Positions 13,757 through 36,826 of a stretch of DNA of 64,000 nucleotides are shown here, piece by piece. Made by a program: the position numbers and the translations under genes. Each line of letters starts with the position of its first letter. Within the stretch, counting starts at the first letter, position 1. The notes under the pieces were generated by a model. That model saw nothing but the letters and a program-made list of their open reading frames with translations, was not told where the DNA came from and ran no database searches. This DNA comes from Minisyncoccota bacterium (GTDB lineage: Bacteria > Patescibacteriota > Minisyncoccia > JBAYJV01), in contig JBAYJV010000002.1 of assembly GCA_041664925.1 (NCBI GenBank), positions 136,302 to 200,301 of the forward strand. Reading direction: 5' to 3'.

Positions 13757-13842
13757 AATCTAATCTTAATATTTTTAACTCCAACTATCAAATTATCCAC
13801 AGATCCTATTGACTTTTAACTGTGGATAAGGTAGACTGTTAT

Positions 13843-14345: not shown

Positions 14346-14449
14346 AGTGTTTGAGTCAAGAGAGGTAATGAGAGTACCTCTCTTTTTTAATATAGAATCA
14401 AGAAAAAAACTTGACATTTGGTTTTTTGTAATTATCATATAATATATAG

Positions 14450-14586
14450 GTAAGAGCCAGCTTCTCGACGGGGTCTGCCGTTAAGACAGCGGTCCTTGAA
14501 GGTGGGTTCCCCCTTCCTTCATTGTGCCACTTAGCGGCACCCCTCGAGAAGGGTTCAAAGAGATAACAGAAGTTATCTCTTTTTTA
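14450..14586 (+). ncRNA. GC-rich small RNA candidate C (~135 nt), unassigned
   Basis: TTGACA at 14411 and TATAAT at 14438 (spacing non-canonical). Long-range pairing cttctcgacgggg/cccctcgagaag. Hairpin GTGCCacttagcGGCAC. Intrinsic terminator agagataacagaagttatctc + T6 at 14561-14586. No ORF. Confidence 0.45.
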
Positions 14587-14648
14587 ATTGTTGACAAACG
14601 AATCAATAAGTAACAGAATAGAGTTATTCAAGTTCTTTAAGGGAGGAT

Positions 14649-23719: not shown

Positions 23720-24718
23720 TTATTCCTCTTTTTCCAATTTATTTTGAACCTGTCTAATTCGTTCTTCACGATTTCCACTTAAGAGAGTATAGGAAATCTC
23801 TCTTCTTTTTAAATCATTAATAATTTGTTCTTGGAATTTAATCCGATGGGTTTCGCCTGATCTTGAGCCATCGTCTTCATAGGGAATATCTATATCGCAA
23901 ACAAACCAAAGATCGTAGCGTTGTTTATTTTTTTTAGCAATTTTAATCAATTCTGGATGCGCTTTTCCATGATAATAACGGCTGAACATTTCGGTCGTAA
24001 TTGCGTTGGTATCAGAAAAGAAATATTTGTTCGCTTTTAAAATTAAAGCATCTTCTTTTGAAAGATGCTTTTTTGCTAGATCAAGTAATTGATCCATAGA
24101 AAGTTTTCCTGAGCTATCATGATATTTATCCCAATATTCTCTGCCAAGCTCCGGCATCCATTGGGTTTTATAAATTTTCCCTAATTCTCTTGCAATTGTG
24201 GTTTTTCCTGTTGACTCAGCTCCCAAAAAAACAATTTTTTTTACAAAACTTTCATATACGACAGGATGAAGAAATTTTCTGTATTTATAAGGATTTTGAC
24301 GAATCATTGTTCCGGATATGGGAACTAATTTACGTTTAATATCAACTATAATATTTTCTGCCCCGAGCGCTTTACTGACATGCTCTCCATACCATTCACT
24401 AGAAAAGAAATGAGTAATTTTAAATGGCACCGTCTTTAAAATATATTCATCGTGTTGTTTGGTAATCCGAGAATCAAGTCCGCACTCCGATGGTCCATTA
24501 TATCCCTTTATAACCGTAACTTGAGGATAGATTTTCTTTATCCAACCAGCGCGAATATTCAAAGGAATGTCGGTAATATCAGGACAATCATAGATAAGCA
24601 CAATAACTTTATCTGTCATTTTTAGTGCCGTATCAACCAAAAGTTGATGGCCTTTATGAAAAGGCGCAAATTTCCCCAAAACTAATCCTGTTGTAAGATT
24701 CTTGGATTTTTTTTCCAT
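23720..24718 (-). CDS. nadR: Bifunctional NMN adenylyltransferase / ribosylnicotinamide kinase (NadR-like, no HTH domain)
   Basis: N-terminal nucleotidyltransferase 'GKFAPFHKGH' (HxGH), C-terminal P-loop 'FLGAESTGKTT' typical of the RNK domain; immediately downstream of pnuC. Confidence 0.75.
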   Translation of the reverse strand: MEKKSKNLTTGLVLGKFAPFHKGHQLLVDTALKMTDKVIVLIYDCPDITDIPLNIRAGWIKKIYPQVTVIKGYNGPSECGLDSRITKQHDEYILKTVPFKITHFFSSEWYGEHVSKALGAENIIVDIKRKLVPISGTMIRQNPYKYRKFLHPVVYESFVKKIVFLGAESTGKTTIARELGKIYKTQWMPELGREYWDKYHDSSGKLSMDQLLDLAKKHLSKEDALILKANKYFFSDTNAITTEMFSRYYHGKAHPELIKIAKKNKQRYDLWFVCDIDIPYEDDGSRSGETHRIKFQEQIINDLKRREISYTLLSGNREERIRQVQNKLEKEE

Positions 24719-25263
24719 GATTTATACCAGTTATAAAATCCTGTACTGGCTAGGATTAAATAAATTATATATAAACCGGCGGTCAGATAGACGCCTTTAT
24801 AAGCATAAATGCCAATCGCTAAAACATCTACCAATATCCAAAGAACCCAGTTTTCGAAAACTTTCGTCATCAGAAATATCTGGGCAATTAAGCTCATAAC
24901 GGTTGTGAATGAATCTAGGTAGGGGATTGAAGCATCGGTAAAATTCTTCAAAGAGAAACCCATAAGCAATGATCCGAAGATAAGAAAAAGAAAGGCCTGA
25001 AGCCTTTCGGTATTATTAAGAACTCTAACTTTTAATTCTGTTTTTTTCTCTCCTCCATGTTTCCAAAGATACCAGCCATAGAAACCGGTTATTATATAGA
25101 AGACCTGCTCGCCCATATCAGCGTAAAGTTTAATCTGAAAGAACATCACCCCTAGGGCTATTACGCTAATAATGCCAATGGGCCAATTGAGGATCTTTTC
25201 TTTGGCTGCTAGGTAAACACACCAAGCTCCGAAGATAACACCGACAATTTCATAGATGTTCAT
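24682..25263 (-). CDS. pnuC: Nicotinamide riboside transporter PnuC
   Basis: 193-aa multi-TM protein with PnuC-like Trp/Gly pattern; classic pnuC-nadR pairing; promoter TTGACA-16/17-TATACT with a candidate NrtR box immediately downstream of the -10. Confidence 0.7.
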   Translation of the reverse strand: MNIYEIVGVIFGAWCVYLAAKEKILNWPIGIISVIALGVMFFQIKLYADMGEQVFYIITGFYGWYLWKHGGEKKTELKVRVLNNTERLQAFLFLIFGSLLMGFSLKNFTDASIPYLDSFTTVMSLIAQIFLMTKVFENWVLWILVDVLAIGIYAYKGVYLTAGLYIIYLILASTGFYNWYKSWKKNPRILQQD

Positions 25264-25311
25264 AGTAGTAAGGTTACAGATAATTGCCTATTTTTCTTTA
25301 ACCTTTTTTAG

Positions 25312-25332
25312 TTAGTGTATCCTCTACAATTA
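25312..25332. promoter_or_regulatory. Candidate NrtR operator 1 (TTAGTGTATCCTCTACAATTA), overlapping the pnuC promoter/TSS
   Basis: GT-N7-AC core with TTAGTGT/ACAATTA arms; half-sites identical to the site at 25433-25453. Confidence 0.55.
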
Positions 25333-25432
25333 GTATAGCGCGAAAAAAAAGTTTGTCAATAGATAAGGGCCTTTTTTGTGAAAAAACCCCTTATTGTGGA
25401 TAAACCACTTGACAAGATTTTTCTTGGGAGTA

Positions 25433-25453
25433 TAATTGTACTAGATACACTAA
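25433..25453. promoter_or_regulatory. Candidate NrtR operator 2 (reverse complement TTAGTGTATCTAGTACAATTA), overlapping the -10/TSS of nrtR (autoregulation)
   Basis: Lies just after TTGACA(25410)-16-TATAAT(25432); same half-sites as site 1. Confidence 0.55.
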
Positions 25454-25465
25454 GTTATCAAATTA

Positions 25466-26148
25466 TGAAAAAAGAAGCTGTTCGGGAAAAAAAATATAAG
25501 TTTGCAGTCATTGCCACTGATGTTGTTTTATTTACCGTAAAGGATGAAAAACTCCAGGTCCTGCTTATTAAGATGAAAAAGAAATTATATAAGGAACACT
25601 GGGCGCTTCCCGGCGGTTTGATTAAATCTCAGGAATCATTGGAAACGGCAGCGAAAAGAAATTTGCTTGCTAAATCCGGTGTAAAAAATATTTATCTTGA
25701 GCAGCTCCGCACTTTTGGCGACATCAGCCGCGATCCTTTTGGAAGAGTCGTTTCGGTTGCTTATTTCGCCCTGATACCTTATAGCGGCATCAAATTGAAA
25801 ACCACCAAAAAATACGCCGGCATCAATTGGTTCCCGATTAAAAAACTTCCTGATTTAGCATACGATCATAAAAAAATGATTGCTTTGGCAGTTAAGCGAC
25901 TGAAAGCAAAACTTGGCTATACCAATATTGTTTATAGTCTTCTACCTCAGGAATTTTCCTTAAGCGATCTTCAGGAAACATACGAAATCATTTTAAATAG
26001 AAAACTCGACAAAAGAAATTTCCGCAAGAAAATCCTTTTATCAAAACTCCTGATAAGAACAAATAAAAAGGAAGGGGGAATGCCTCACAGGCCAGCAGTG
26101 ATTTATCGCTTCAAACAGCGCAGCCCCCAGATTATCGATCTGCTTTAA
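25466..26148 (+). CDS. nrtR: NrtR-family transcriptional regulator (Nudix domain + C-terminal winged HTH)
   Basis: Nudix-like 'EHWALPGGLIKSQESLETAAKRNLLAKSG'; C-terminal 'LPQEFSLSDLQETYEIILNRKLDKRNFRKKI...HRPAVIYRF' wHTH characteristic of NrtR. The ORF track starts at a GTG at 25378, but the ATG at 25466 follows a perfect promoter. Confidence 0.75.
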
Positions 26149-26175
26149 TTAACGCCTATTTTTTTTCCTCATTAG

Positions 26176-26196
26176 TTAGTGTATAAAACACACTTA
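26176..26196. promoter_or_regulatory. Candidate NrtR operator 3 (TTAGTGTATAAAACACACTTA, near-perfect palindrome)
   Basis: Between nrtR and the PP2C gene; GT-N7-AC core. Confidence 0.55.
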
Positions 26197-26243
26197 AAAG
26201 GGTTTAGTTCTTCCTGATTTTTACAAATTTTTTTACCCCTTAA

Positions 26244-26264
26244 TTAGTGTTAATAATACACATA
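26244..26264. promoter_or_regulatory. Candidate NrtR operator 4 (TTAGTGTTAATAATACACATA), overlapping the likely island promoter
   Basis: Followed by CATACT -10-like element and the AGTTCTTTA start motif at 26272. Confidence 0.5.
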
Positions 26265-26345
26265 CTCATATAGTTCTTTAGCCTAAGTAAGTAGTACTTT
26301 AACAATTTAAAAACTCACAAAGCTCTCAATAACCCCTCAAGGACG

Positions 26346-27215
26346 GTGAATGTAATGAAAAATCAATTTGAGATCGCCGGCGGAACTGTTCTGGGAACCA
26401 ATCATCAAAGATGCGGAAAAAATAATCAGGACGCTTTTTTATGGCAAATCACAGAAGATGCGGTTGTCATCGTTGTTGCTGATGGCTGCGGCTCTAAGCC
26501 ACATAGCGAAGTAGGAGCGAAAATCGGCAGCCAATTGATAGTTAATGAAATCATTACCAATCTATATGAGAATGGATTCCTAGATGCGCTTGGAAATGAT
26601 ATCGCCACAAATAACCTCTGGTCTTTAATAGAAAGAAATGTGCTGGAAAAAATCTACGCTCTGGCTCATTCAATGGACCGAGATCTTCATGCTCAGGCAA
26701 TTGCCGATTATTTTCTCTTCACAATGATCGGTGCCATCGCCACAAAAAATAAAACCATAATTTTTTCTCTTGGTGACGGCGCCTACATCATTAACGGAGA
26801 AGTAACACAAATCGGTCCCTTTCCTGACAATGCTCCTCCTTATCTCGCTTATCAATTACTGGACCCCCAGACTCTTGATATCGATCAAAGACTGCTTCAC
26901 ATCAAGACAAAGCGCATCATCGAAACACCTGAAATCAAAAATTTGCTCATCGGCACTGACGGCGTCTGCGATTTAATCAGACAGTCAGAAAAACAAATTC
27001 CCGGCAGCCAAGACCAGGTTGGTCAGATAAATTGGTTCTGGGAAAACGACAAATGTTTTTCCAATCCGGATATGATCAGACGGCGCTTGTCGATGATGAA
27101 CCGCCAAAGCTTAAGAATTGATGAAAAAAAACATCTCGCCAAAGAATCGGGAATTCTGCCAGACGACACAACTCTTGTGGTAATGAGGCAAAAAAAAGGA
27201 GGCGACAAGATGTGA
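26346..27215 (+). CDS. PP2C-family serine/threonine phosphatase-like protein
   Basis: 'GTNHQRCGKNNQDAF', 'VVADGCGS' metal-binding Asp motifs, C-terminal 'IGTDGV'; stop overlaps the kinase start by 4 nt. Confidence 0.7.
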   Translation: MNVMKNQFEIAGGTVLGTNHQRCGKNNQDAFLWQITEDAVVIVVADGCGSKPHSEVGAKIGSQLIVNEIITNLYENGFLDALGNDIATNNLWSLIERNVLEKIYALAHSMDRDLHAQAIADYFLFTMIGAIATKNKTIIFSLGDGAYIINGEVTQIGPFPDNAPPYLAYQLLDPQTLDIDQRLLHIKTKRIIETPEIKNLLIGTDGVCDLIRQSEKQIPGSQDQVGQINWFWENDKCFSNPDMIRRRLSMMNRQSLRIDEKKHLAKESGILPDDTTLVVMRQKKGGDKM

Positions 27216-29077
27216 ATGAAATCTATGTCAACGGACAACGCGTCCGCCTCAGTCAAAATAAACTCATCGGCCAGGGCGGCGAAGCGGAAATCTATGATTT
27301 GGGCAATGGCAAGGCGCTTAAGGTTTTCAAAACACCGGACCATCCCGACTTCCAGGGAAATCCTGTAGAACAGGCAATTGCCAGAGAGCGGATTTTGGAA
27401 CACCAACAAAAACTCAAGACATTTCCCAAAAATCTGCCCCACCGCATCATTGCACCCGAAGATCTGGCGTTTGATAGCACAACAAGGCAAATTGCCGGTT
27501 ATGTTATGCGCTATCTCAAACAAACAGAAGTGCTGATAAAGTATAGCGACCGCAGTTTCCGCGAACAAAGAATTTCCCAGGAAACGGTGACTAAGATTTT
27601 CCTTGATCTTTATAAAACAGTTTCGGAAGCCCATCGGACCGGCGTCGTCATCGGTGATTTCAATGATTTGAATGTCCTGGTCTCAGGGAATGAAGCCTAT
27701 CTGGTTGATGTTGACAGCTATCAGTTTGGGAAGTTCCTCTGCAAGCTCTTTACTGAGCGCTTTGTTGATCCCTTGCTTTGCGATCCAAAAGAAACAAGGC
27801 CAGTACTTGCTTTCCCTCATAACCAAAATTCCGATTGGTACGCTTTCGCTATCATGCTGATGCAATGTCTGCTTTATGTGGGACCGTACGGAGGAATTTA
27901 TAGGCCAAAAAAAGCTCCCCAGAAAATCGTAACGCAGGATTCAAGACCGCTTAAAAGGATTACGGTTTTTCATCCTGATGTCCAGTACCCAAAACCGGCT
28001 ATCCGCCTTGATGTTTTGCCGGATGAAATGCTTGAATATCTGCGCCTTACTTTCGAAAAAGACCAAAGGCGCGTTTTCCCAGAAAACCTGATTCAGAGTC
28101 TATGCTGGAAAAAATGCCTGGTCTGCGGCACAGAACATGCGCGCAATTCCTGTCCCCAGTGTTTCAAAGCTATTGTCAAAGAAATTGTCCATTTCAAAGG
28201 CCATGTTTCAGCAAGAGATATTTTCAGGACTAAGGGTATTATTTTAAAAGCAGGTCTTAACGGAAAAAACTTCCTTTGGCTCTATTACGAAGATGGTTGC
28301 TTTAAAAGAGAAAATGGCGCGATTGTCGCCCGAGAAAAACTCGATCCGCGAATGCGTTTCGGAATCAGTGACGGATCAACCCTGATCGCCAAAGGTGATG
28401 AACTTTATTTATTTAGGACAAACCAGGCGCCTGTCAAAACCAACATCGGAACTTTCCAAAACTTGCCAATGTTTGACGCCAATGAAAATCATATTTACTG
28501 GATAGAAAATAATCAACTGTTCCGTGATGGCCCATTTGGTAAGGAAGCAATCGGTAAAATTCTTGAAAACCAAACGATTTTCTGGGTTGGTCCAGAATTC
28601 GGATTCGGTTTCTATCGCGCAGGAAATCTAACCATCGCCTTTGTCTTCGACAAAGAAAAACTGGGCATCAATGACCAGGTAAAACTTCCACCCATTAAAG
28701 GACAATTAATTAGTTGCGAATGCTTCTTCGATAAGGAGCGCTGCTGGCTTTTGATCTCAACTCAGCAAAAGGGAAAAATCATTAACGATTGCGTGGTTAT
28801 TTTGAAAAATGGCGCTGTAGAATGCGTGGCGCAAGCAACTCAAGATGATGGATCCTGGCTGGGAACACTCAAGGGAAAATGCGCTTTCCGACAGTTCCTT
28901 TTCGCTCCGACTGATGAAGGTATTGTAAGAACGGAAATTGAACAGGGACAAATCGCCAAGATAAATCATTTTCCTGACACAGAGCCTTTTGTGGATAAAG
29001 ATTCACTCCTTTTTACGGACCAGAACGGCATTTATGCTGTTAACCGCCAGGATATCAAGCTCCTAAGAATCGATTAG
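27212..29077 (+). CDS. Atypical protein kinase (Gly-rich loop GQGGEAEIY, VAIK-like ALKVFK, GDFNDLN catalytic loop, DVDS) + Cys4 zinc ribbon + beta-rich C-terminal domain
   Basis: Kinase-fold motifs; 'CLVCGTEHARNSCPQCF' zinc ribbon; translationally coupled to the PP2C gene. Confidence 0.65.
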   Translation: MNEIYVNGQRVRLSQNKLIGQGGEAEIYDLGNGKALKVFKTPDHPDFQGNPVEQAIARERILEHQQKLKTFPKNLPHRIIAPEDLAFDSTTRQIAGYVMRYLKQTEVLIKYSDRSFREQRISQETVTKIFLDLYKTVSEAHRTGVVIGDFNDLNVLVSGNEAYLVDVDSYQFGKFLCKLFTERFVDPLLCDPKETRPVLAFPHNQNSDWYAFAIMLMQCLLYVGPYGGIYRPKKAPQKIVTQDSRPLKRITVFHPDVQYPKPAIRLDVLPDEMLEYLRLTFEKDQRRVFPENLIQSLCWKKCLVCGTEHARNSCPQCFKAIVKEIVHFKGHVSARDIFRTKGIILKAGLNGKNFLWLYYEDGCFKRENGAIVAREKLDPRMRFGISDGSTLIAKGDELYLFRTNQAPVKTNIGTFQNLPMFDANENHIYWIENNQLFRDGPFGKEAIGKILENQTIFWVGPEFGFGFYRAGNLTIAFVFDKEKLGINDQVKLPPIKGQLISCECFFDKERCWLLISTQQKGKIINDCVVILKNGAVECVAQATQDDGSWLGTLKGKCAFRQFLFAPTDEGIVRTEIEQGQIAKINHFPDTEPFVDKDSLLFTDQNGIYAVNRQDIKLLRID

Positions 29078-29155: not shown

Positions 29156-30217
29156 ATGAGCACGAAGAAAACAAAGGTCGCCCAACTCCCTCTTCCCAAG
29201 CACTATGATCCGCAGAATGCCACGAATGCCGATTATAGCGTTCGCGACATAACCCTGCTTCAAACCTGCGCTGAAGCCTGGCGCAAAACTCACAAAATTC
29301 ATCCTGTAAACGATGATGCTAAAAATGTTCAGATGCTTATCATTGATGACCAGGTTGATTTCAGCTTCCCGACAGGGTCCCTTTATGTGGCCGGTCGCTC
29401 AGGCACCGGCGCCATGGATGCCCATCAGAGACTTGTTGAATTCCTTTACCGATACCTCGACTTGATTTCCGGGATTACCTGCACAATGGATACTCACCTG
29501 CCTTATCAGATTTTCTATCCCAGCGCCCACCTTTTGCCGGACGGAAGCCACCCTCAACCCAACACCGTCATTTCTGCCAAGGATTATCGCGACGGAAAGT
29601 ACGAACCTAATCCGGCAATGGCTGCTCAGATTGGTTTGAGTGTGCTTGACCTAAGACGGCAATTCATCCATTACTGCGAACAATTGGAGAAAACCGGCAA
29701 ATACATGCTTTATCTCTGGCCCTATCACTGCATGCTCGGCTCTCCGGGACATCGCTTAGCTGGTGTTGTTGATGAAGTCCGCCTCTTCCATAGTTTTGCG
29801 AGAGGCGCAGCCAACATCCCGGCGATTAAGGGTGGCAATCCTTTGACCGAGCACTACTCGATTTTCTCACCAGAAGTGACAACTCTTTGGGACGGAAGAC
29901 CTATTCCTCAGGCGCAGAAAAATGAGAGACTGATCAAAACTCTCTTTGAAGCAGATGTGGTTATTATGGCGGGACTCGCGTCCAGCCACTGCGTCAAGGA
30001 AAGCATCGCCGATTTCCTGAAAGAAATCAAAGCCCAGGACGAATCCCTGGTAAAGAAAGTTTACATTCTTGAAGACTGCACTGCTGCAGTTGTCATTCCT
30101 TCGGGACCTGATTTTACCGACGATGCGAATAAGGCTTTGAAGGAATTTGAAAACGCCGGAATGCACGTTGTCAGATCAACTGACCTGATCGAATCCTGGC
30201 CTGAAATCAGGCTTTAG
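29156..30217 (+). CDS. pncA: Nicotinamidase-like cysteine hydrolase (PncA/isochorismatase family, long 353-aa form) - paralog 1
   Basis: 'MLIIDDQVDF' (Asp), 'LWPYHCMLGSPGH' (PncA WPxHC signature), 'KGGNPLTEHYSIF', 'IMAGLASSHCVKES' (catalytic Cys). Confidence 0.75.
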   Translation: MSTKKTKVAQLPLPKHYDPQNATNADYSVRDITLLQTCAEAWRKTHKIHPVNDDAKNVQMLIIDDQVDFSFPTGSLYVAGRSGTGAMDAHQRLVEFLYRYLDLISGITCTMDTHLPYQIFYPSAHLLPDGSHPQPNTVISAKDYRDGKYEPNPAMAAQIGLSVLDLRRQFIHYCEQLEKTGKYMLYLWPYHCMLGSPGHRLAGVVDEVRLFHSFARGAANIPAIKGGNPLTEHYSIFSPEVTTLWDGRPIPQAQKNERLIKTLFEADVVIMAGLASSHCVKESIADFLKEIKAQDESLVKKVYILEDCTAAVVIPSGPDFTDDANKALKEFENAGMHVVRSTDLIESWPEIRL

Positions 30218-30288
30218 GAACCAAAAAAAACGGAGGCAGGCAAGAAAGCTTGTCTGCCTCCACTCTCTCAAAAGCAAAGGAGGCTTCT

Positions 30289-31083
30289 GTGAGCGATAGC
30301 GCAAAAAAACTGATTCAGTCGGCTGCGCAGGAAGGCACAATTTCTCCTGCCACAGCAAAAGCTCTGACAGTTCACGACGTAGGTATGGAAATCGAAGCGG
30401 CTTTGGGAGTCAATGTTGACGACGTGAAGTCAACCGAAGTTGTTCTTGTTACCTTCCTGATTGACGATTCGGGCTCCATTGAAGGAGCGGGAAATACCGC
30501 AAATGTCATGCTTGGACACAATCTTGTTCTCGATGCTCTGATGAAAACCAAGCAAAAAAACAACATTCTCGTTCATACAAGAACCCTGAACGGCACGATT
30601 ATAACGCCTTATTGTCTGTTAGAAAATGCTGTTCAGCTTGATGCTTCAAACTATTTCCCTGTTGGCGGCACTCCGCTTTACGATGAGACCGTCGTAATTC
30701 TTGGAACAGTTATTGCTAAAACGGAACAGTTTTCCAAAAACGCCGTTCCAGTAAGAACAGTAACAATCATTATCACCGACAGCTGCGATCTTCATTCTCG
30801 CAAATACCGACGCCCTCAGGATGTGGCACCCATTGTCCAGGATATGTTTAAAACAGAACAGCACATTATTGCCGGTATGGGCATTGATGACCATCAAACC
30901 GATTTCAAAAAAGTTTTCGGCGATATGGGAATTCTGCCCCAGTGGATTCTGACGCCGGACAATGACCCTCACGAAATCCGCAAGGCTTTCCTGATGGTTT
31001 CCCAGTCAGCTACCAAAATCAGCCAGAACGCCCAGGGTTTCGCTCAAGCCAGCCTCGGAGGTTTCGGTAAAACAGCTCCTTAA
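30289..31083 (+). CDS. von Willebrand factor A (vWA) domain protein, TerY-like
   Basis: MIDAS 'LIDDSGSI' (DxSxS), 'GGTPLY' Thr motif, 'ITDSCD'. GTG start after RBS aaggagg; the ORF track begins upstream at a TTG at 30250. Confidence 0.7.
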   Translation: MSDSAKKLIQSAAQEGTISPATAKALTVHDVGMEIEAALGVNVDDVKSTEVVLVTFLIDDSGSIEGAGNTANVMLGHNLVLDALMKTKQKNNILVHTRTLNGTIITPYCLLENAVQLDASNYFPVGGTPLYDETVVILGTVIAKTEQFSKNAVPVRTVTIIITDSCDLHSRKYRRPQDVAPIVQDMFKTEQHIIAGMGIDDHQTDFKKVFGDMGILPQWILTPDNDPHEIRKAFLMVSQSATKISQNAQGFAQASLGGFGKTAP

Positions 31084-31350
31084 TTGTTCTTTGACAAAAT
31101 CAGGGAGGGATTGTGAAAGCATAATCCCTCCCTTTTTCAAAAAATTATTGTCATTATTCTTAAAAACGTTTAAAATCATTGACAAAACGCAAATTTATTA
31201 TAGAATAGTATGTCAGAATGATAAAGCAATTTTAGAAAATTGAAGCGGAAAAATTCGGCTCTAATTTTCTAGCCTTGATTGGTATCGAGGCTAAAGTACC
31301 TAAACAAAGCTCATAAAAAAACAGCGATAAAGGACAAGGAGGTCCAAGAA

Positions 31351-32331
31351 ATGGAAAGAATCGAAAAGGTTGATTATTTGTCAGCTGCTGGTCTGGGAAA
31401 AACCTGTCAGAAAATGCAAGGTGTCAAACCTGCATCTCGAGATCGGATACGAATTGGTTTATTGATTATTGATCCTCAAAACACATTCTGCCACCCAGAA
31501 CTTGCAGAACTTCTGGTGCCTCATGCTTGGGAAGATAATACCAGATTGATGCATTTTATCTTAGATAATATTGCAAGAATCACAGCTATTGACGTTTCTC
31601 TTGACACGCACTCGCCAATGCAGATTTTTCACCCAATCTTCTGGGTGGATAAAGATGGCAATCATCCTGCACCTGGTACCGAGATTACTCACGAAAATGT
31701 TGTAAGAGGTATGTGGCGAATCAATCCAGAAGTTGGCTATAGATTCAGTAGAACTCAGAAATGGCTTGATGATTATGCTCTCTGGTATACCAGCGAACTT
31801 GAAAAAAGAGAAAAAAAACCTTTAATGATCTGGACTTACCACGGAATCTTGGGAAGTTTTGGTCATGCATTAGATTCATCTGTAGAATACGCAATCTTTG
31901 TTCATGAAATGGCCCGCCAGACAACAAGATTCACCATCCTTAAGGGCACTAATCCGTTTACCGAATACTATTCGATCGTTGGTCCGGAAGTAAGTAAAGC
32001 CCACGATGGATCAGTAATAGACAATTTCAACTTTGAGCTAATAAGACGATTCTTGGGGTATGATACTCTGATTATTGCTGGTCAATCTAGAAGCCACTGT
32101 GCTCCTGAGTCTTTAAATGACATTATGAATAATGCTGAGTCTGCTGATGAGTTTGCTCCGAGATCAAAACTAAGAATTGGTAATATTTACTTCCTTGATG
32201 ATTGTAGTTCTTCAATTCCTGGTTTTGAGAAACAGACAAATGAAGCCTTTGCGCGTTTCGCTGCTCGTGGTCTTCACATCGTCAAATCCACCACTCCGAT
32301 GGAGGAGTGGCCCAATATTGAGCTTAACTAA
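31351..32331 (+). CDS. pncA: Nicotinamidase-like cysteine hydrolase (PncA/isochorismatase family) - paralog 2
   Basis: 'LLIIDPQNTF', 'IWTYHGILGSFGH', 'KGTNPFTEYYSIV', 'IIAGQSRSHCAPES'; same architecture as paralog 1; RBS aaggagg before ATG 31351. Confidence 0.75.
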   Translation: MERIEKVDYLSAAGLGKTCQKMQGVKPASRDRIRIGLLIIDPQNTFCHPELAELLVPHAWEDNTRLMHFILDNIARITAIDVSLDTHSPMQIFHPIFWVDKDGNHPAPGTEITHENVVRGMWRINPEVGYRFSRTQKWLDDYALWYTSELEKREKKPLMIWTYHGILGSFGHALDSSVEYAIFVHEMARQTTRFTILKGTNPFTEYYSIVGPEVSKAHDGSVIDNFNFELIRRFLGYDTLIIAGQSRSHCAPESLNDIMNNAESADEFAPRSKLRIGNIYFLDDCSSSIPGFEKQTNEAFARFAARGLHIVKSTTPMEEWPNIELN

Positions 32332-32407
32332 AAGCTTTGAGGCGAGAGAAAAGCTTCTCGCCTCCTTTCTCCGACTACTTAGTAAATATTAGGTGCTCGA
32401 AGTAAGT

Positions 32408-32554
32408 TAGTTCTTTAAAAAATAAATATAAGGCTCTAATACAGGCTTATGCGAAACAAAGCGTAGCCCCAGTACCAGAATTCGCTTCGCTCATTCGGTA
32501 CAGGGCGTAAGAGTTTATAAGTTTCGCTTTGCTCAACAACAAACACTAACGGAG
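32408..32554 (+). promoter_or_regulatory. Conserved structured leader, copy a (…taaggctctaatacaNgcttatgcgaaacaaagNgtagccccNgtacc agaattcgcttcgctcattc ggtacagggcgtaag…ctaacggaggtg)
   Basis: About 90% identical over roughly 110 nt to copies at 35510-35662 (+) and 47385-47510 (-); hairpin cccNgtacc/ggtacaggg; ends in a shared RBS. Confidence 0.6.
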
Positions 32555-32560
32555 GTGCGC

Positions 32561-33205
32561 ATGGAAGGCAAGGTCAGAATCGCTGTTGGCGGTTCTGCCG
32601 CCAACCCCCCTCATCTCGGACATTTGCAAGTATTGAGATTCTTGATTCATACTAAGCAATTTGACAGAATCATCTGGATACCTTGTGGATCAAGAACCGA
32701 TAAAAAAGACCTTGTTGAAGCTTCCCATCGTCTCGCGATGGTAAATCGTTTTATGGAAAGTTTCACTCACAAAGAAATGGAAGTGCTTGATGTACGAGAC
32801 GATGATGTTAGAGGAGACAACACGCCGACAATTGAATGGCTTGAAAGATTAACCAGAGAATTTCCTGATGCGGAGATCTGGTGGTTTACAGGTTCCGATT
32901 CGATTATTCCTCAGAAAAAATTCGGCGGAAAATCTGAAATTGAAGCTTGCTGGATCAGGGGAGAGGAGTTATTGCGCAATTATAACTTCTTAATTCTTGT
33001 CAGACCAGGATATCCGATTCCAAACAATCTCAAGTTTCCAGGCAACATTAAAATTGTCAACACGAATCTTGAAGATGTTTCAAGTTCGGAAACGCGCGAT
33101 CTGATCAAAGAGCAGGATAGCGCCTTTGAAAGACTTGTGCCAAAAAAAGTTGCAGAATACATAAAAGAAAACCATCTTTATGGATGGAAAGGAGATGGAA
33201 AGTGA
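32561..33205 (+). CDS. nadD: Nicotinate/nicotinamide mononucleotide adenylyltransferase (NadD-like)
   Basis: 'GGSAANPPHLGHL' (HxGH) and 'SSSETRDLI' (ISSTxxR) nucleotidyltransferase motifs. Confidence 0.75.
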   Translation: MEGKVRIAVGGSAANPPHLGHLQVLRFLIHTKQFDRIIWIPCGSRTDKKDLVEASHRLAMVNRFMESFTHKEMEVLDVRDDDVRGDNTPTIEWLERLTREFPDAEIWWFTGSDSIIPQKKFGGKSEIEACWIRGEELLRNYNFLILVRPGYPIPNNLKFPGNIKIVNTNLEDVSSSETRDLIKEQDSAFERLVPKKVAEYIKENHLYGWKGDGK

Positions 33206-34449
33206 ATCGTCAGAAAGATAAACCGATCATTACAAGTCTGCTCGACTCTGACTTCTATAAATACACAATGGGACAAGAAAGTTTCCATCGCCACCCAACC
33301 GCACAGGTAACATTCAGCCTAACCAATCGAACAAGATCGGTAAGGCTTGCCGATTGTGTGGATATCGGAAGGCTCAGAGAAGAATTAGACGAAGTTCGTA
33401 AATTGGCTTTTACTATTTCCAATATCCATTACCTGCGCGGCACGGACGAATATGGACAAAGAATGTTTAGGGAAGATTACCTGGAACATTTGAAGGCTCT
33501 GCGACTAGGAGCTTATGACCTCGATGTGGTCGATGGTCAATTCCATCTGGAGTTTTCTGGTCCATGGTCTGTGGTAACTTACTGGGAAACTCTTGCTCTT
33601 TCGATTCTTACGGAACTTTACACTGAGTATCAATTGAGCAAAATGAGTCGACTTGAACAAGATGCTGTTTTAGCTCGCGGATATACTCAACTTCTGGAAA
33701 AAGTTAGGATTCTCAAGAGCTTCCCTGATATAACTCTTACTGATTTTTCATCTCGACGCCGAGCTTTTAGAGAATGGCAAGATTACGTTGTTAGTGTTCT
33801 TATTGAAGAGCTTCCTGGACAATTCCGTGGAACCTCAAATGTCCTTCTCTCAGACAAATATGGTACAGTGCCAATGGGAACTGCGGCTCATGAGCGCGAT
33901 ATGATTATAGCAGGAATTATGAGCGATACTGACGAAGGTATTCTTCGAACAATCCAAATGACACTCGAGAGTTGGTGGGAAGAATACGGAGAAGCACTTT
34001 CTGTCGCTCTACCAGATACGTTCGGCACAGATGCGTTTTTTAGGGCGATGACTGCTGAACAGGCAGCAAAATGGAAGGGATTGAGACAAGATTCAGGAAA
34101 TCCATTTACTTTTGTAGATAAAGTAATCGCTTTCTATAAGAGTCATGGAATCGATCCACAAAAAAAGCTTATAGTTTTTAGTGATGGTTTGGAAATTGAT
34201 AAAATTCTTGCTATCGCAGATTATTGTCGAGGGAAGATTAGGGCAACATTTGGATGGGGAACCAATCTTGGAAACGATCTCGGACTTCAGGCTCTATCCT
34301 TGGTTATTAAGGCAACCCGTGCAAATGGCAAACCACTTGTTAAACTCAGCGATAACCTCGCAAAGGCAATTGGTCCAAAAGACGAAATTGATCGTTACAA
34401 GCGTATCTTCGGATACGATGTGATACTCAACGAACAACCAAAGTACTAA
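33202..34449 (+). CDS. pncB: Nicotinate phosphoribosyltransferase (PncB/NAPRT family)
   Basis: 'SLLDSDFYKYTMGQ' N-terminal NAPRT signature; about 415 aa; start uncertain (ATG 33184 or GTG 33202 after RBS aaaggag). Confidence 0.7.
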   Translation: MNRQKDKPIITSLLDSDFYKYTMGQESFHRHPTAQVTFSLTNRTRSVRLADCVDIGRLREELDEVRKLAFTISNIHYLRGTDEYGQRMFREDYLEHLKALRLGAYDLDVVDGQFHLEFSGPWSVVTYWETLALSILTELYTEYQLSKMSRLEQDAVLARGYTQLLEKVRILKSFPDITLTDFSSRRRAFREWQDYVVSVLIEELPGQFRGTSNVLLSDKYGTVPMGTAAHERDMIIAGIMSDTDEGILRTIQMTLESWWEEYGEALSVALPDTFGTDAFFRAMTAEQAAKWKGLRQDSGNPFTFVDKVIAFYKSHGIDPQKKLIVFSDGLEIDKILAIADYCRGKIRATFGWGTNLGNDLGLQALSLVIKATRANGKPLVKLSDNLAKAIGPKDEIDRYKRIFGYDVILNEQPKY

Positions 34450-34642
34450 AGCTTTGGGGCGAGAGAGAAAAACTTTTCTCGCCCCCTTTCTCCAGTCACT
34501 TATTATTAGGTGATTGAAGGAAGTCTGTTAGTAAGCTCAGGACAAATCCTTCGACAGGCTCAGGATAAATCCTTCGATAAATTTGTGGTTAACATGTCTA
34601 ACCACTCAGGACAAGTCAGTTCTTTAAAAAATAGACAAGGAG

Positions 34643-35377
34643 ATGATAAGAGTGAAAACGATCATGATTAACGGCAAAGAAGTACCCGTAACAGGAGAAA
34701 GCGTTGACCAAGCTATTAATAGTATAATTTTTAAGGATTGGTTGGCATCATTGAATCGACTGTTCGTAATCAAATCAATCCATTTTCAATCAGTTGACAT
34801 TTCTCCTAGGACATCAAGGGTAAAATTTATCAAAGCTAAAATAGAATTAATTGATTGTGATGGAAGTAAATTTACGAACATCATTTTCATGCGTGGCGGT
34901 GCAGTTACAATTCTCTTTGTTATTCATGTGGATAAAGAAGAATTCACAATTTTGACTCGTCAGCCTCGTCTACCCTCAGGATCATTTAGACTATTGGAAA
35001 CTCCTGCCGGTACAATTGACACGAGCGAAACTGCTGTCAAAGTTGCCGTCAGAGAAATTTGGGAAGAAGTGGGTATTAAGATTCGCGAAAATCAATTAAT
35101 AGATCTAACTGCGCACTTTCATGAAAAACGCCATAAGGGTATTTATACATCACCTGGAGCATGTGATGAGTTCCTTCGAATCTTTCTCTGTGAAATCACT
35201 ATGACAGATGGTGAGTTGGAGCAATTAAGAGGAAAACTTACAGGACTTAGAGATGAAGGCGAAAGAATTACCTTGGAGGTTTTTCGCCTAAGAGAACTTC
35301 CTTTTGAAGCTCCTGATGCCAAATCTCTTGCCGCTCTAGCCTTGTATGATGCTTACATACGAGAGCACAGTACTTAG
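34643..35377 (+). CDS. Nudix hydrolase (ADP-ribose / NAD-derivative pyrophosphatase-like)
   Basis: Nudix box 'GTIDTSETAVKVAVREIWEEVGI'. Confidence 0.7.
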   Translation: MIRVKTIMINGKEVPVTGESVDQAINSIIFKDWLASLNRLFVIKSIHFQSVDISPRTSRVKFIKAKIELIDCDGSKFTNIIFMRGGAVTILFVIHVDKEEFTILTRQPRLPSGSFRLLETPAGTIDTSETAVKVAVREIWEEVGIKIRENQLIDLTAHFHEKRHKGIYTSPGACDEFLRIFLCEITMTDGELEQLRGKLTGLRDEGERITLEVFRLRELPFEAPDAKSLAALALYDAYIREHST

Positions 35378-35397
35378 TATAAAAGCACATAAAACAA

Positions 35398-35462
35398 GAG
35401 GCGACTTAAGTCGTCGCCTCCTTTCTTGGATGACTTAGAAAACTAAGTCATCGAAGTAAGTC
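35398..35462 (+). repeat. Identical ~65-nt junction module: terminator gaggcgacttaagtcgtcgcctc + hairpin ATGACTTAGaaaaCTAAGTCAT + cgaagtaag
   Basis: Exact second copy at 36828-36892; related modules at 32336-32400 and 34452-34520, all followed by AGTTCTTTAA. Confidence 0.7.
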
Positions 35463-35509
35463 CTCCGATAGATTCGATTTACTCACTACAAGCTAAACTC
35501 AGGACAAGT

Positions 35510-35662
35510 AGTTCTTTAACAATATAATATAAGGCTCTAATACAAGTTTATGCGAAACAAAGTGTAGCCCCGGTACCAGAATTCGCTTCGCTCATTCGGT
35601 ACAGGGCGTAAGAGCTTCTAAATTTCGTTTCACTCAACAAGAGTCTCTAACGGAGGTGTAAC
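35510..35662 (+). promoter_or_regulatory. Conserved structured leader, copy b
   Basis: See 32408-32554. Confidence 0.6.
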
Positions 35663-36826
35663 ATGCAAATAGTCTACACTGGAGAAAATCTTCCTAAAAA
35701 GATTGTCAAATCTATTTTTCTTGCCGGTCCAACGCCGCGATCAAAAGAAACGAATTCGTGGCGACCGGAAGCCTTAAGAATTCTCGAAGAGAAAGGTTTT
35801 AATGGAACAGTTTTTGTTCCGGAATTCAGAAATCGCGACAAAGAATACGCTGACGATATGGAAGAAAATACTATCTCTTGGGAAGAACAAGCTCTGAATA
35901 TGGCCGATTGTATTCTTTTCTGGATACCGCGAGATCTCAAAACCATGCCGGCTTTCACAACGGATGTTGAGTATGGCGAATGGTTTAAATCAGGCAAGAT
36001 TGTTTTGGGCGCTCCAAAGAATGCTCCCAAAATGAGCTATCTTTTGAAACGCGGACAGAAATATTACATTCCGCAGGCTACAACTCTTGAAAATACTATT
36101 GATATGGCCCTAGCTATGATTGGCAATGGCGCGCTGCGTGTTGAAGGAGAATGCCAGATACCATTACACATCTGGAAAACCGGATCTTTCCAATCGTGGT
36201 ATCAAGCCCAGATTCAAGCAGGCAATCGGCTGCACAGCGCCAAAGCAGAATGGGTATTCAGAGTTGGACCAAAGAAACAAATATTCTTCATTTGGATTCT
36301 CCATGTTGATATATATATCACTGCTGAAGAAAGACACAAGACCAATGAAGTTGTTATCGGCCGTCCCGACATTTCTACGGTCGCTCTGTATATAAGAGCT
36401 GATGACATTATGGATTCTGATATTGTTCTTATTAAAGAGTTTTGCAGTCCTGCTGCGACTGCCGATGGATATGTCTGGGAACCTCCCGGCGGCTCTTCAA
36501 TTAAAGGAGAGTACGATCCCCGAAAGTTAGCAGTAGATGAGGTTTTTGAGGAAACCGGACTTAAGATTAGCCCGGATAGAATCATTTTCAATGGCGCGCG
36601 GCAAATCTATGGAACCTTGTTGTCACATAAGGCATTTCTTTTCTCTGCGGAAATCACTAGAAACGAATTGGATTGGCTTATATCTCAAATTGGCATCGTT
36701 CACGGAGTAGAAAAAGATACTGAAAGAACATATGTGGAAATTGTCAAACTTCGAGATATTTTGAGCCAAGAACTTGTAGATTGGAGCGCATTAGGTATGC
36801 TTTTCGCTGCGCTCACAAAGAAATAA
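35663..36826 (+). CDS. Fusion protein: N-terminal nucleoside 2-deoxyribosyltransferase-like (NDT/Rcl-like Rossmannoid) domain + C-terminal Nudix hydrolase domain
   Basis: N-terminal 'IFLAGPTPRS...W...CILFWIP...EYGEWFKSGKIVLGAP' NDT-like pattern; C-terminal Nudix box 'GGSSIKGEYDPRKLAVDEVFEETGL'. Confidence 0.6.
   Translation: MQIVYTGENLPKKIVKSIFLAGPTPRSKETNSWRPEALRILEEKGFNGTVFVPEFRNRDKEYADDMEENTISWEEQALNMADCILFWIPRDLKTMPAFTTDVEYGEWFKSGKIVLGAPKNAPKMSYLLKRGQKYYIPQATTLENTIDMALAMIGNGALRVEGECQIPLHIWKTGSFQSWYQAQIQAGNRLHSAKAEWVFRVGPKKQIFFIWILHVDIYITAEERHKTNEVVIGRPDISTVALYIRADDIMDSDIVLIKEFCSPAATADGYVWEPPGGSSIKGEYDPRKLAVDEVFEETGLKISPDRIIFNGARQIYGTLLSHKAFLFSAEITRNELDWLISQIGIVHGVEKDTERTYVEIVKLRDILSQELVDWSALGMLFAALTKK

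Follow-up and report, generated by a model that had tools for sequence, protein, structure and literature searches.

NrtR regulons, as described by Rodionov et al. (2008; PMC2330246; S. oneidensis SO1979, Synechocystis Slr1690), are built around a repressor that combines a Nudix domain with a winged helix-turn-helix. Most NrtR motifs reported there are palindromic, 21 bp long with a GT-N7-AC core, and overlap promoters, a placement from which repression was inferred, and the gene arrangements include nrtR diverging from pnuC-nadR (Hahella) as well as nadR-pnuC-nrtR (Streptococcus). In this study, we analyzed a 64-kb stretch (hereafter the window) of the genome of a Minisyncoccota bacterium (38% GC), in which four 21-bp boxes surround an nrtR gene. 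We propose that these boxes are very probably the operators at which NrtR represses pnuC-nadR, nrtR itself and an operon led by a PP2C-type phosphatase. The Nudix plus winged-helix repressor, the 21-bp GT-N7-AC palindrome over promoter elements and the clustering with genes of nicotinamide adenine dinucleotide (NAD) metabolism are all shared with the known regulons; operator and logic are those of a textbook NrtR system, an ordinary and well-known switch. The window differs from them by its lineage (Patescibacteria, of the Candidate Phyla Radiation, CPR), which is new to the NrtR literature examined, by its arm TTAGTGTA, and by the PP2C/kinase/nicotinamidase/vWA operon, which is not described there by function, a comparison that leaves aside the unnamed nrtX-nrtY of that work. 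The unexpected part is the presence of two boxes before this uncharacterised operon, which is boxed likewise in several phyla.

Two experimentally characterized proteins serve as further reference points. In the crystal structure of BtAraR of Bacteroides thetaiotaomicron with DNA, four residues of the recognition helix (K179, the intercalating R180, N181 and K184) and R205 of the wing together define GTGT in the operator AAAAGTGT-TACTTTT-ACACCC, i.e., GTGT-N7-ACAC (PMC4666351). The helix DKRNFRK, the wing arginine, the GTGT-N7-ACAC core and tandem 21-bp sites before a target operon all recur in the window. However, BtAraR senses L-arabinose and controls ara genes, whereas the context here is NAD salvage, and its phosphate pocket is closed by Phe36 and Leu67, where the window NrtR has lysines. 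MsNrtR of Mycobacterium smegmatis, whose Nudix motif is inactive, has been shown experimentally to be an auto-repressor, and ADP-ribose releases it from DNA (PMC6800001). It shares with the window the inactive Nudix domain and the position between divergent nrtR and NAD genes, but its palindrome is different (GTTTTCGA-N7-TCGAAAAC) and it controls de novo synthesis (nadABC) instead of salvage (PMC6800001).

The core TTAGTGT-N7-AC has exactly four matches on both strands of the window, all inside 953 bp and all non-coding, in the gaps that flank nrtR on either side (25264-25464 and 26149-26354). Box 1 (25312-25332, plus strand; TTAGTGTATCCTCTACAATTA) has a degenerate right arm (ACAATTA), and box 2 (25433-25453, minus strand; TTAGTGTATCTAGTACAATTA as read on that strand) a right arm that is degenerate likewise. 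Box 3 (26176-26196, plus strand; TTAGTGTATAAAACACACTTA), located 28 nt 3' of the nrtR stop codon, is a near-perfect palindrome with arms that match at six of seven positions, and box 4 (26244-26264, plus strand; TTAGTGTTAATAATACACATA) overlaps with its right arm CATACT (26261-26266), the best -10-like hexamer ahead of PP2C. Each of them fits a 21-bp inverted repeat with a GT-N7-AC core. A preliminary description of this DNA had already reported these four sites, the opposite orientation of box 2, the near-perfect palindrome at 26176-26196 and the likeness of the core to NrtR operators; all of this is upheld, the last point by the core stated for most NrtR motifs (PMC2330246).

Dinucleotide shuffles of the window contain on average 0.22 matches to the core and at most two, so that four or more were found in none of 100 shuffles. 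A position weight matrix (PWM) trained on the four boxes themselves assigns them 19.8-24.9 bits and the rest of the window at most 9.6 bits. With a cross-phylum PWM, built from 51 unique sites that all come from other organisms, the boxes again take the first four places in the window (25.0, 24.0, 18.2 and 13.4; next 12.9), compared to best scores of 9.7-19.2 in shuffled windows. Because their scores exceed the shuffle maxima, boxes 3 and 4 are individually significant; the case for boxes 1 and 2 is their exact TTAGTGTA arm, their mutual identity of 18/21 and their placement. The PWM scan that had been proposed for the whole genome was realized for the 64 kb of the window, within which nothing else reaches the four boxes. 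A fifth, weak site (25391-25411; 9.6 bits with the self-trained PWM) was rejected, as it receives no support from the cross-phylum PWM and is better explained by the TGTGGATAA box inside it.

Boxes 1 and 2 lie on the divergent promoters of pnuC and nrtR. In the promoter scan, the nrtR promoter (25409..25436, plus strand; TTGACA-N16-TATAAT) matches the consensus at 12/12 positions and the pnuC-nadR promoter (25332..25359, minus strand; TTGACA-N16-TATACT) at 11/12. Box 2 overlaps the -10 element of nrtR by 4 nt and box 1 that of pnuC by 1 nt, and in both cases the expected transcription start is covered. The preliminary description had called both promoters textbook examples overlapped by two of the sites, which agrees with the scan and the overlaps (both spacers being N16), and had suggested autoregulation, a suggestion that is strengthened by the location of box 2 on the nrtR -10/start and by the precedent of MsNrtR (PMC6800001). 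When the nrtR promoters of four Patescibacteria, i.e., of the window and of three loci retrieved from other genomes (L002, L042 and L093, see below), are aligned, conservation is seen at the -35, the -10 and the box. The divergent target operon starts with pnuC (24682..25263, minus strand), encoding a nicotinamide riboside/nicotinamide mononucleotide (NMN) transporter, followed by a nadR-like gene (23720..24718, minus strand) for an NMN adenylyltransferase with ribosylnicotinamide kinase, both assigned by Pfam/NCBIfam. The NadR-like protein opens immediately with the adenylyltransferase motif and lacks a helix-turn-helix (HTH) at its N-terminus, and is therefore regarded as an enzyme, not a regulator.

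The same intergenic region carries two further elements. An imperfect palindrome, AAGGGCCTTTTTT-GTG-AAAAAACCCCTT (25364-25392), is located between the -35 boxes of the two promoters and has A-tracts at UP-element positions for both. Just 5' of the nrtR -35, at 25395-25403, there is one copy of the DnaA-box consensus TGTGGATAA, which occurs five times in the window (further copies at 13793-13801 on the minus strand, 13821-13829, 28990-28998 and 34927-34935) compared to 0.67 expected, with five or more in 0 of 100 shuffles. TGTGGATAA is also found 5' of the nrtR -35 in L002 (around 5921) and, farther upstream, in L093 (around 5190), and with one mismatch in L042. An inverted pair of copies flanks a TTGACT-N17-TAGACT promoter (13809-13837) beside priA.

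The nrtR gene (25465..26148, plus strand) encodes a protein of 227 amino acids with a degenerate Nudix-like domain at the N-terminus (Pfam NUDIX PF00293, E 1.8e-13, residues 20-140) and an NrtR winged helix at the C-terminus (NrtR_WHD PF21906, E 7.2e-23, residues 157-216). We take the ATG at 25465 as the true start for two reasons: alignments with homologs begin at residues 8-16, and the promoter lies inside the longer, GTG-initiated open reading frame. Its nearest solved relatives, BtAraR (5bs6; E 1.2e-37) and S. oneidensis NrtR (SoNrtR, 3gz5; E 1.5e-30), align end to end. By sequence the product belongs to the NrtR family, but is no equivalog of the curated NCBIfam subgroup NF050029 (ADPR-responsive repressor), for which it scores 169.6 bits where the cut-off is 400. 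In its degenerate Nudix box (GLIKSQESLETAAKRNLLAKSGV), REUxEE has become RNLLAK, hence the product is predicted to be a sensor and not a hydrolase. The recognition helix, D182-K-R-N-F-R-K188 (DKRNFRK, residues 182-188), is identical to that of BtAraR and the wing arginine is kept (R209). Owing to this identity, the protein would be predicted, independently of the DNA, to read precisely the core seen in the four boxes, and the four palindromes are almost certainly NrtR binding sites. The designation of the boxes as candidate NrtR operators is thereby given substance: a gene with Nudix and NrtR_WHD domains lies between them, and the motif is conserved beside nrtR homologs across phyla.

This conservation was assessed in 90 fetched loci with NrtR homologs (29-54% identity), using the box pattern T[TA]wG[TC]GT-N7-AC[AG]Cw[AT]A. 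In 48 loci from many phyla, 63 positionally consistent boxes fall into three classes. The largest class (33 boxes) lies 1040-1350 bp upstream of nrtR, directly before nadA-nrtR; in L001, the locus in which the identity of nadA was checked by Pfam (E 4.8e-119), the box is 8 nt before nadA of the nadA-nrtR operon. Another 11 boxes are found 20-70 bp upstream of nrtR, and the remaining 19 are located 30-150 bp after its stop codon. Overall, the core has 108 matches in the loci versus 50 +/- 7 in shuffled loci. Many boxed loci are GC-rich (60-70%), a background against which an AT-rich palindrome stands out, and the arms are conserved in sequence across lineages, without compensatory change. The box accompanies the recognition helix: loci with D[KR]RNFRK carry it, and no box was found in those with DKPNFRRK (Cytophagales, Bacteroidota) or DPxNF (actinobacterial). 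Judged by eye from translations, nrtR is followed in Armatimonadota and Janthinobacterium loci by NADAR-, ADP-ribosylglycohydrolase- and DUF4291-like genes; in Haloferula it is followed by pncB (tblastn) and a KptA-like gene (by eye). A fixed looping geometry was considered and rejected, since the distances between box centres vary (23-25, 35, 59-60, 68 and 121 bp).

Boxes 3 and 4, 68 bp apart from centre to centre, lie in the 26149-26354 gap upstream of the PP2C gene, in line with the earlier statement that the other two sites precede a PP2C-led operon. Its first gene (26355..27215, plus strand) encodes the PP2C-type phosphatase (PP2C_2, E 1.2e-24). The second (27212..29077, plus strand) encodes a 621-residue protein composed of a Hanks-type kinase, a CxxC..CPxC zinc ribbon and a C-terminal beta-propeller, an assignment that is weak by sequence and comes from a structure model (predicted local distance difference test, pLDDT, 90.8; fold matches including Aurora B, PknB and WDR91). 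It is followed by a long-form, PncA-like nicotinamidase of 353 amino acids (29156..30217, plus strand; D-K-C triad motifs IIDDQ, IKGG and SHC) and a standalone vWA protein of 277 amino acids (30250..31083, plus strand). The latter belongs to no family by sequence in Pfam/NCBIfam, where the nicotinamidase gives a weak family signal, but its model (pLDDT 86) has an intact metal ion-dependent adhesion site (MIDAS; motifs DDSGS, GTPLYD and TDS) and matches the integrin I-domain, TRAP and Rpn10 as top PDB folds. The 353-residue protein is a member of a large family (3,433 hits) that is named nicotinamidase by both NCBI and JGI. In sequence searches of the PDB, the nicotinamidase and the vWA protein had no match, and the best one of the kinase was not significant (E 0.28). 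An intrinsic terminator (31102..31137, plus strand; -25.7 kcal/mol, z -6.3) closes the operon, and a separate promoter, TTGACA-N16-TAGAAT, serves the gene that comes next; together they delimit the operon to these four genes. Because it contains a nicotinamidase, we consider the operon NAD-linked.

The joint presence of a PP2C, a Hanks-type kinase and a standalone vWA protein makes up a three-protein signalling triad. The same architecture is reportedly that of the 'TerY-P triad' of Aravind's group. PADLOC gave no significant match for the three proteins, the weak ones being PDC-M21C for the PP2C and PD-T4-6 and MkoA for the kinase, with none for the vWA protein; as TerY-P is not among these family names, we read this as no TerY-P match. 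Sets of a kinase with zinc ribbon and beta-rich region, a PP2C and a standalone vWA protein were noted by Kaur et al. (2020; PMC7159879), and the window operon has this architecture, yet unlike those triads it is combined in one operon with a nicotinamidase and stands under NrtR boxes. In the work of Iyer et al. (2022; PMC9503650), NrtR-like repressors are predicted to be ADP-ribose sensors that turn on operons for ADP-ribose processing, some of which include vWA, NADAR or Macro. Three of our loci (L011, L016 and L092) resemble the ADP-ribosylglycohydrolase-centred Nudix-HTH systems described there; that description contains neither a PP2C nor a nicotinamidase, and the window cassette in turn has no ADP-ribosylglycohydrolase.

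The PP2C-kinase-nicotinamidase-vWA order recurs in other organisms: a 71%-GC metagenome-assembled genome (MAG; L091), Blastocatellia (L092, where the cassette is followed by DUF4291, NADAR, Band_7, PARG and NrtR), a Patescibacteria MAG (L093/L094; nrtR-PP2C-kinase-pncA-vWA-NAD kinase-pncB), a genetic-code-4 bacterium (L095/L096), Leptolyngbya (L098; with adjacent NrtR and an inserted ADP-ribosylglycohydrolase), Myxococcus (L099, JAAIXY010000008; nrtR-PP2C-kinase-pncA-vWA) and a 31%-GC genome (L100). In most cases the cassette is a neighbour of nrtR. The best database matches of the cassette proteins come from several phyla, with kinases at least 49% and nicotinamidases 54-71% identical. In L091, L092, L098 and L099 a box TAGTGT-N7-ACAC fills the 17-bp spacer between TTGACA and the -10 of a promoter before PP2C, with a second box 2-7 bp after this promoter-embedded one. 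Tandem boxes occur in L100 too, some 200-290 bp upstream of PP2C; two boxes are present in L002 and L042 and a single one in L093; in L095 there is no clear box before PP2C. Altogether, a box is located within 300 bp upstream of PP2C in 9 of 10 independent instances, compared to about 0.02 expected from the degeneracy of the pattern. By these sequence comparisons, the PP2C operon is a conserved NrtR target elsewhere. Further tandem box pairs were seen in L098 (7918-7966), before the kinase gene and after the inserted ADP-ribosylglycohydrolase, and in L095 (12564-12643), before isochorismatase-NAPRTase genes. In the AT-rich leader from the last NrtR box to PP2C, the two Magasanikiibacteriota-like loci L002 (6790-6850) and L042 (2378-2435) have a GC-rich stretch GGACCCCGTTGGCCTCGTTATGGGAGGGG..CGGCCCGAGG in common, with no Rfam match.

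In the mechanism we propose, an NrtR dimer would occupy each box, as expected from homology. Each winged helix-turn-helix would set its recognition helix (D182-K188) in the major groove over GTGT/ACAC, with wing residue R209 contacting the AT-rich outer flank. On boxes 1 and 2, which are seen to cover -10/+1, NrtR would block RNA polymerase at both promoters; nicotinamide riboside uptake and conversion by the pnuC-nadR products would go down, and the blocked nrtR promoter would result in negative autoregulation. Boxes 3 and 4, the conservation of which is observed, would keep the PP2C operon off. Here, box 4 could cover a weak promoter's spacer and -10, or both boxes could stop read-through from the nrtR promoter (PnrtR), since there is no terminator after nrtR; the boxes may gate a weak promoter, block read-through, or both, and how they act is less certain than for boxes 1 and 2. 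The least certain step is the signal. The catalytically dead Nudix domain would bind a phosphorylated ligand related to NAD, with ADP-ribose released by NAD cleavage as the most likely one; this would reorient the DNA-binding domains, upon which the affinity would fall and NAD salvage would be derepressed.

Several observations weigh against this reading of the operators. Boxes 1 and 2 carry ACAA, not ACAC, in one arm, and their cross-phylum PWM scores (13.4 and 18.2) are within the range of the shuffle maxima. PWM scans detected no box at the nadD-pncB operon, the second nicotinamidase paralog or the downstream Nudix gene, which means that the regulon covers not all NAD genes here; a single ACACTAA half-site (32543-32549) is the sole trace near these genes. 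The motif scan, moreover, extends over 64 kb of the genome only. Between nrtR and PP2C, the plus-strand scan located no sigma-70-like promoter of at least 9/12 on which boxes 3 and 4 could act; in a lenient scan of this gap the best pairs reach 8/12 (GTGTTA-N16-TATAGT and TTTTTA-N16-AATAAT), both overlapping box 4. A CTTAAT/TTAATT-N15/16-CATACT element (26261-26266 for the -10) that has box 4 in its spacer parallels the arrangement in other phyla, with 7/12. That the boxes would be chance likenesses or generic AT-rich promoter sequence with no regulatory role, as the 38% GC of the genome and the scores of boxes 1 and 2 taken alone might suggest, is nevertheless effectively refuted by the absence of four matches in any of 100 shuffles and by the recurrence of this palindrome, identically placed, in 48 loci, some of them from genomes of 60-71% GC. 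Similarly disfavoured, to the point of being hardly credible, is a function of the palindromes as RNA hairpins in termination, attenuation or processing: their inverted-repeat form and the transcription of boxes 3 and 4 in the event of read-through from PnrtR speak for it, but as RNA these two boxes form hairpins of just -2.9 kcal/mol (z -0.1 and -0.8, no better than shuffles) without U-tract, the first box lies in the untranscribed -35/-10 spacer in other phyla, and the arms are kept by sequence without covariation. Rfam detected no family in the intergenic regions and only two tRNAs in the whole window. The adjacency of a nadR-like gene might point to another NAD regulator (NadR, NiaR or NadQ) as the protein that binds the boxes; this is most improbable, given that the NadR-like protein lacks an HTH, that the published motifs of NadR (TGTTTA-N6-TAAACA) and NadQ (ttATRCTCannntGAGYATaa) differ and that the box co-occurs with the specific NrtR recognition helix.

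The remaining alternatives concern the role of boxes 3 and 4 and the signal. Boxes 3 and 4 could be roadblocks or auxiliary operators for PnrtR read-through, with nrtR-PP2C-kinase-pncA-vWA forming one autoregulated transcript, since there is neither a terminator nor a good promoter between nrtR and PP2C and the five genes are in the same order in Myxococcus and in the Patescibacteria MAG. We consider this unlikely, because the boxes of L091, L092, L098 and L099 are inside a clear TTGACA...-10 promoter directly before PP2C, because promoter-embedded boxes persist with nrtR far away or on the opposite strand, and because box 4 with its -10-like CATACT occupies the equivalent position in the window. 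As to the signal, mapping of the ADP-ribose contacts of SoNrtR by alignment gives a mixed picture: K76 corresponds to K70, F15 to Y11 and N43 to K39, but R41 and R98 are replaced by M37 and F92. The L-arabinose pocket of the AraR subgroup (Phe36, Leu67 and Gly89) is not present either, Lys39, Lys70 and Phe92 standing in its place; with lysines at the positions of the phosphate-space fillers Phe36 and Leu67 of BtAraR, a phosphorylated ligand is plausible from the sequence. ADP-ribose as inducer is our best guess, and by analogy somewhat better than an even bet, based on the family precedent and on the ADP-ribose enzymes in sister regulons. Operators and repressor could also be as described, with NAD or a related dinucleotide as co-repressor (cf. 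C. glutamicum NdnR) or an unrelated inducer as the signal. The lost arginines, the L-arabinose-sensing BtAraR as closest solved relative and best PDB match, and the response of the NrtR-family member NdnR to NAD all argue in that direction and against ADP-ribose. The lysines at positions 39 and 70 (the latter being the kept K76 of SoNrtR), the absence of pentose genes in the window and the homologous regulons rich in NADAR, ADP-ribosylglycohydrolase and PARG make such another signal rather improbable.

Interest in the operator itself is modest; the part worth following is the NrtR-gated PP2C/kinase/nicotinamidase/vWA cassette. We tentatively propose, at slightly below even likelihood, that nrtR-PP2C-kinase(beta-propeller)-nicotinamidase-vWA forms a cassette that is conserved and has spread horizontally, mostly with an ADP-ribose/NAD-sensing box pair in its promoter, and in which NAD cleavage would switch on the triad and the nicotinamidase. 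If this is true, cleavage of NAD by an NADase-type defence system or toxin, or heavy use by sirtuins or ADP-ribosyltransferases, would turn on the phospho-signalling triad, and the nicotinamidase induced alongside would provide the first enzyme of nicotinamide recycling. In the searchable literature we found no description of an NrtR-boxed PP2C/kinase/nicotinamidase/vWA unit, none that joins NrtR with PP2C and none that joins a nicotinamidase with the kinase/PP2C/vWA triad. The consistent NrtR boxes would tie this triad to NAD/ADP-ribose status, and Myxococcus, with its identical gene order, offers a tractable experimental host. Patescibacteria/CPR organisms are thought to depend on scavenged cofactors, and the window provides a concrete, testable NAD-salvage regulon in such an organism. 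At the same time, the GTGT-N7-ACAC code known from BtAraR crystallography would be extended to NAD-linked NrtR proteins of many phyla.

Downstream of the operon, further NAD genes are encoded without NrtR boxes. A second nicotinamidase-family paralog (31279-32331) is 33% identical to the operon copy (E 5e-56), keeps the D/K/C motifs and has its own TTGACA-N16-TAGAAT promoter (31179-31206), with no NrtR box. It is followed by nadD (32555-33205) and pncB (33184-34449) and a Nudix hydrolase gene (34643-35377), all three identified by Pfam/NCBIfam. The NAD cluster goes on at 34643-36826, where this Nudix hydrolase, which has an 85-residue N-terminal extension, is joined by a 387-residue protein with a nucleoside 2-deoxyribosyltransferase-like domain; neither gene has an NrtR box. 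In another part of the window (14411-14590), a TTGACA-N16-TATCAT promoter (11/12) and a terminator (14557-14582) enclose about 115 nt of GC-rich, apparently non-coding sequence, which matches no Rfam family even when E values up to 1 are allowed and is a possible small RNA. Within the NAD cluster, an element of about 65 nt occurs twice (32344-32412 and 34465-34529; 76-81% identity), directly after the paralog and after pncB; it is composed of a GC-rich hairpin, CTTTCTCC, followed by TATTAGGTG.

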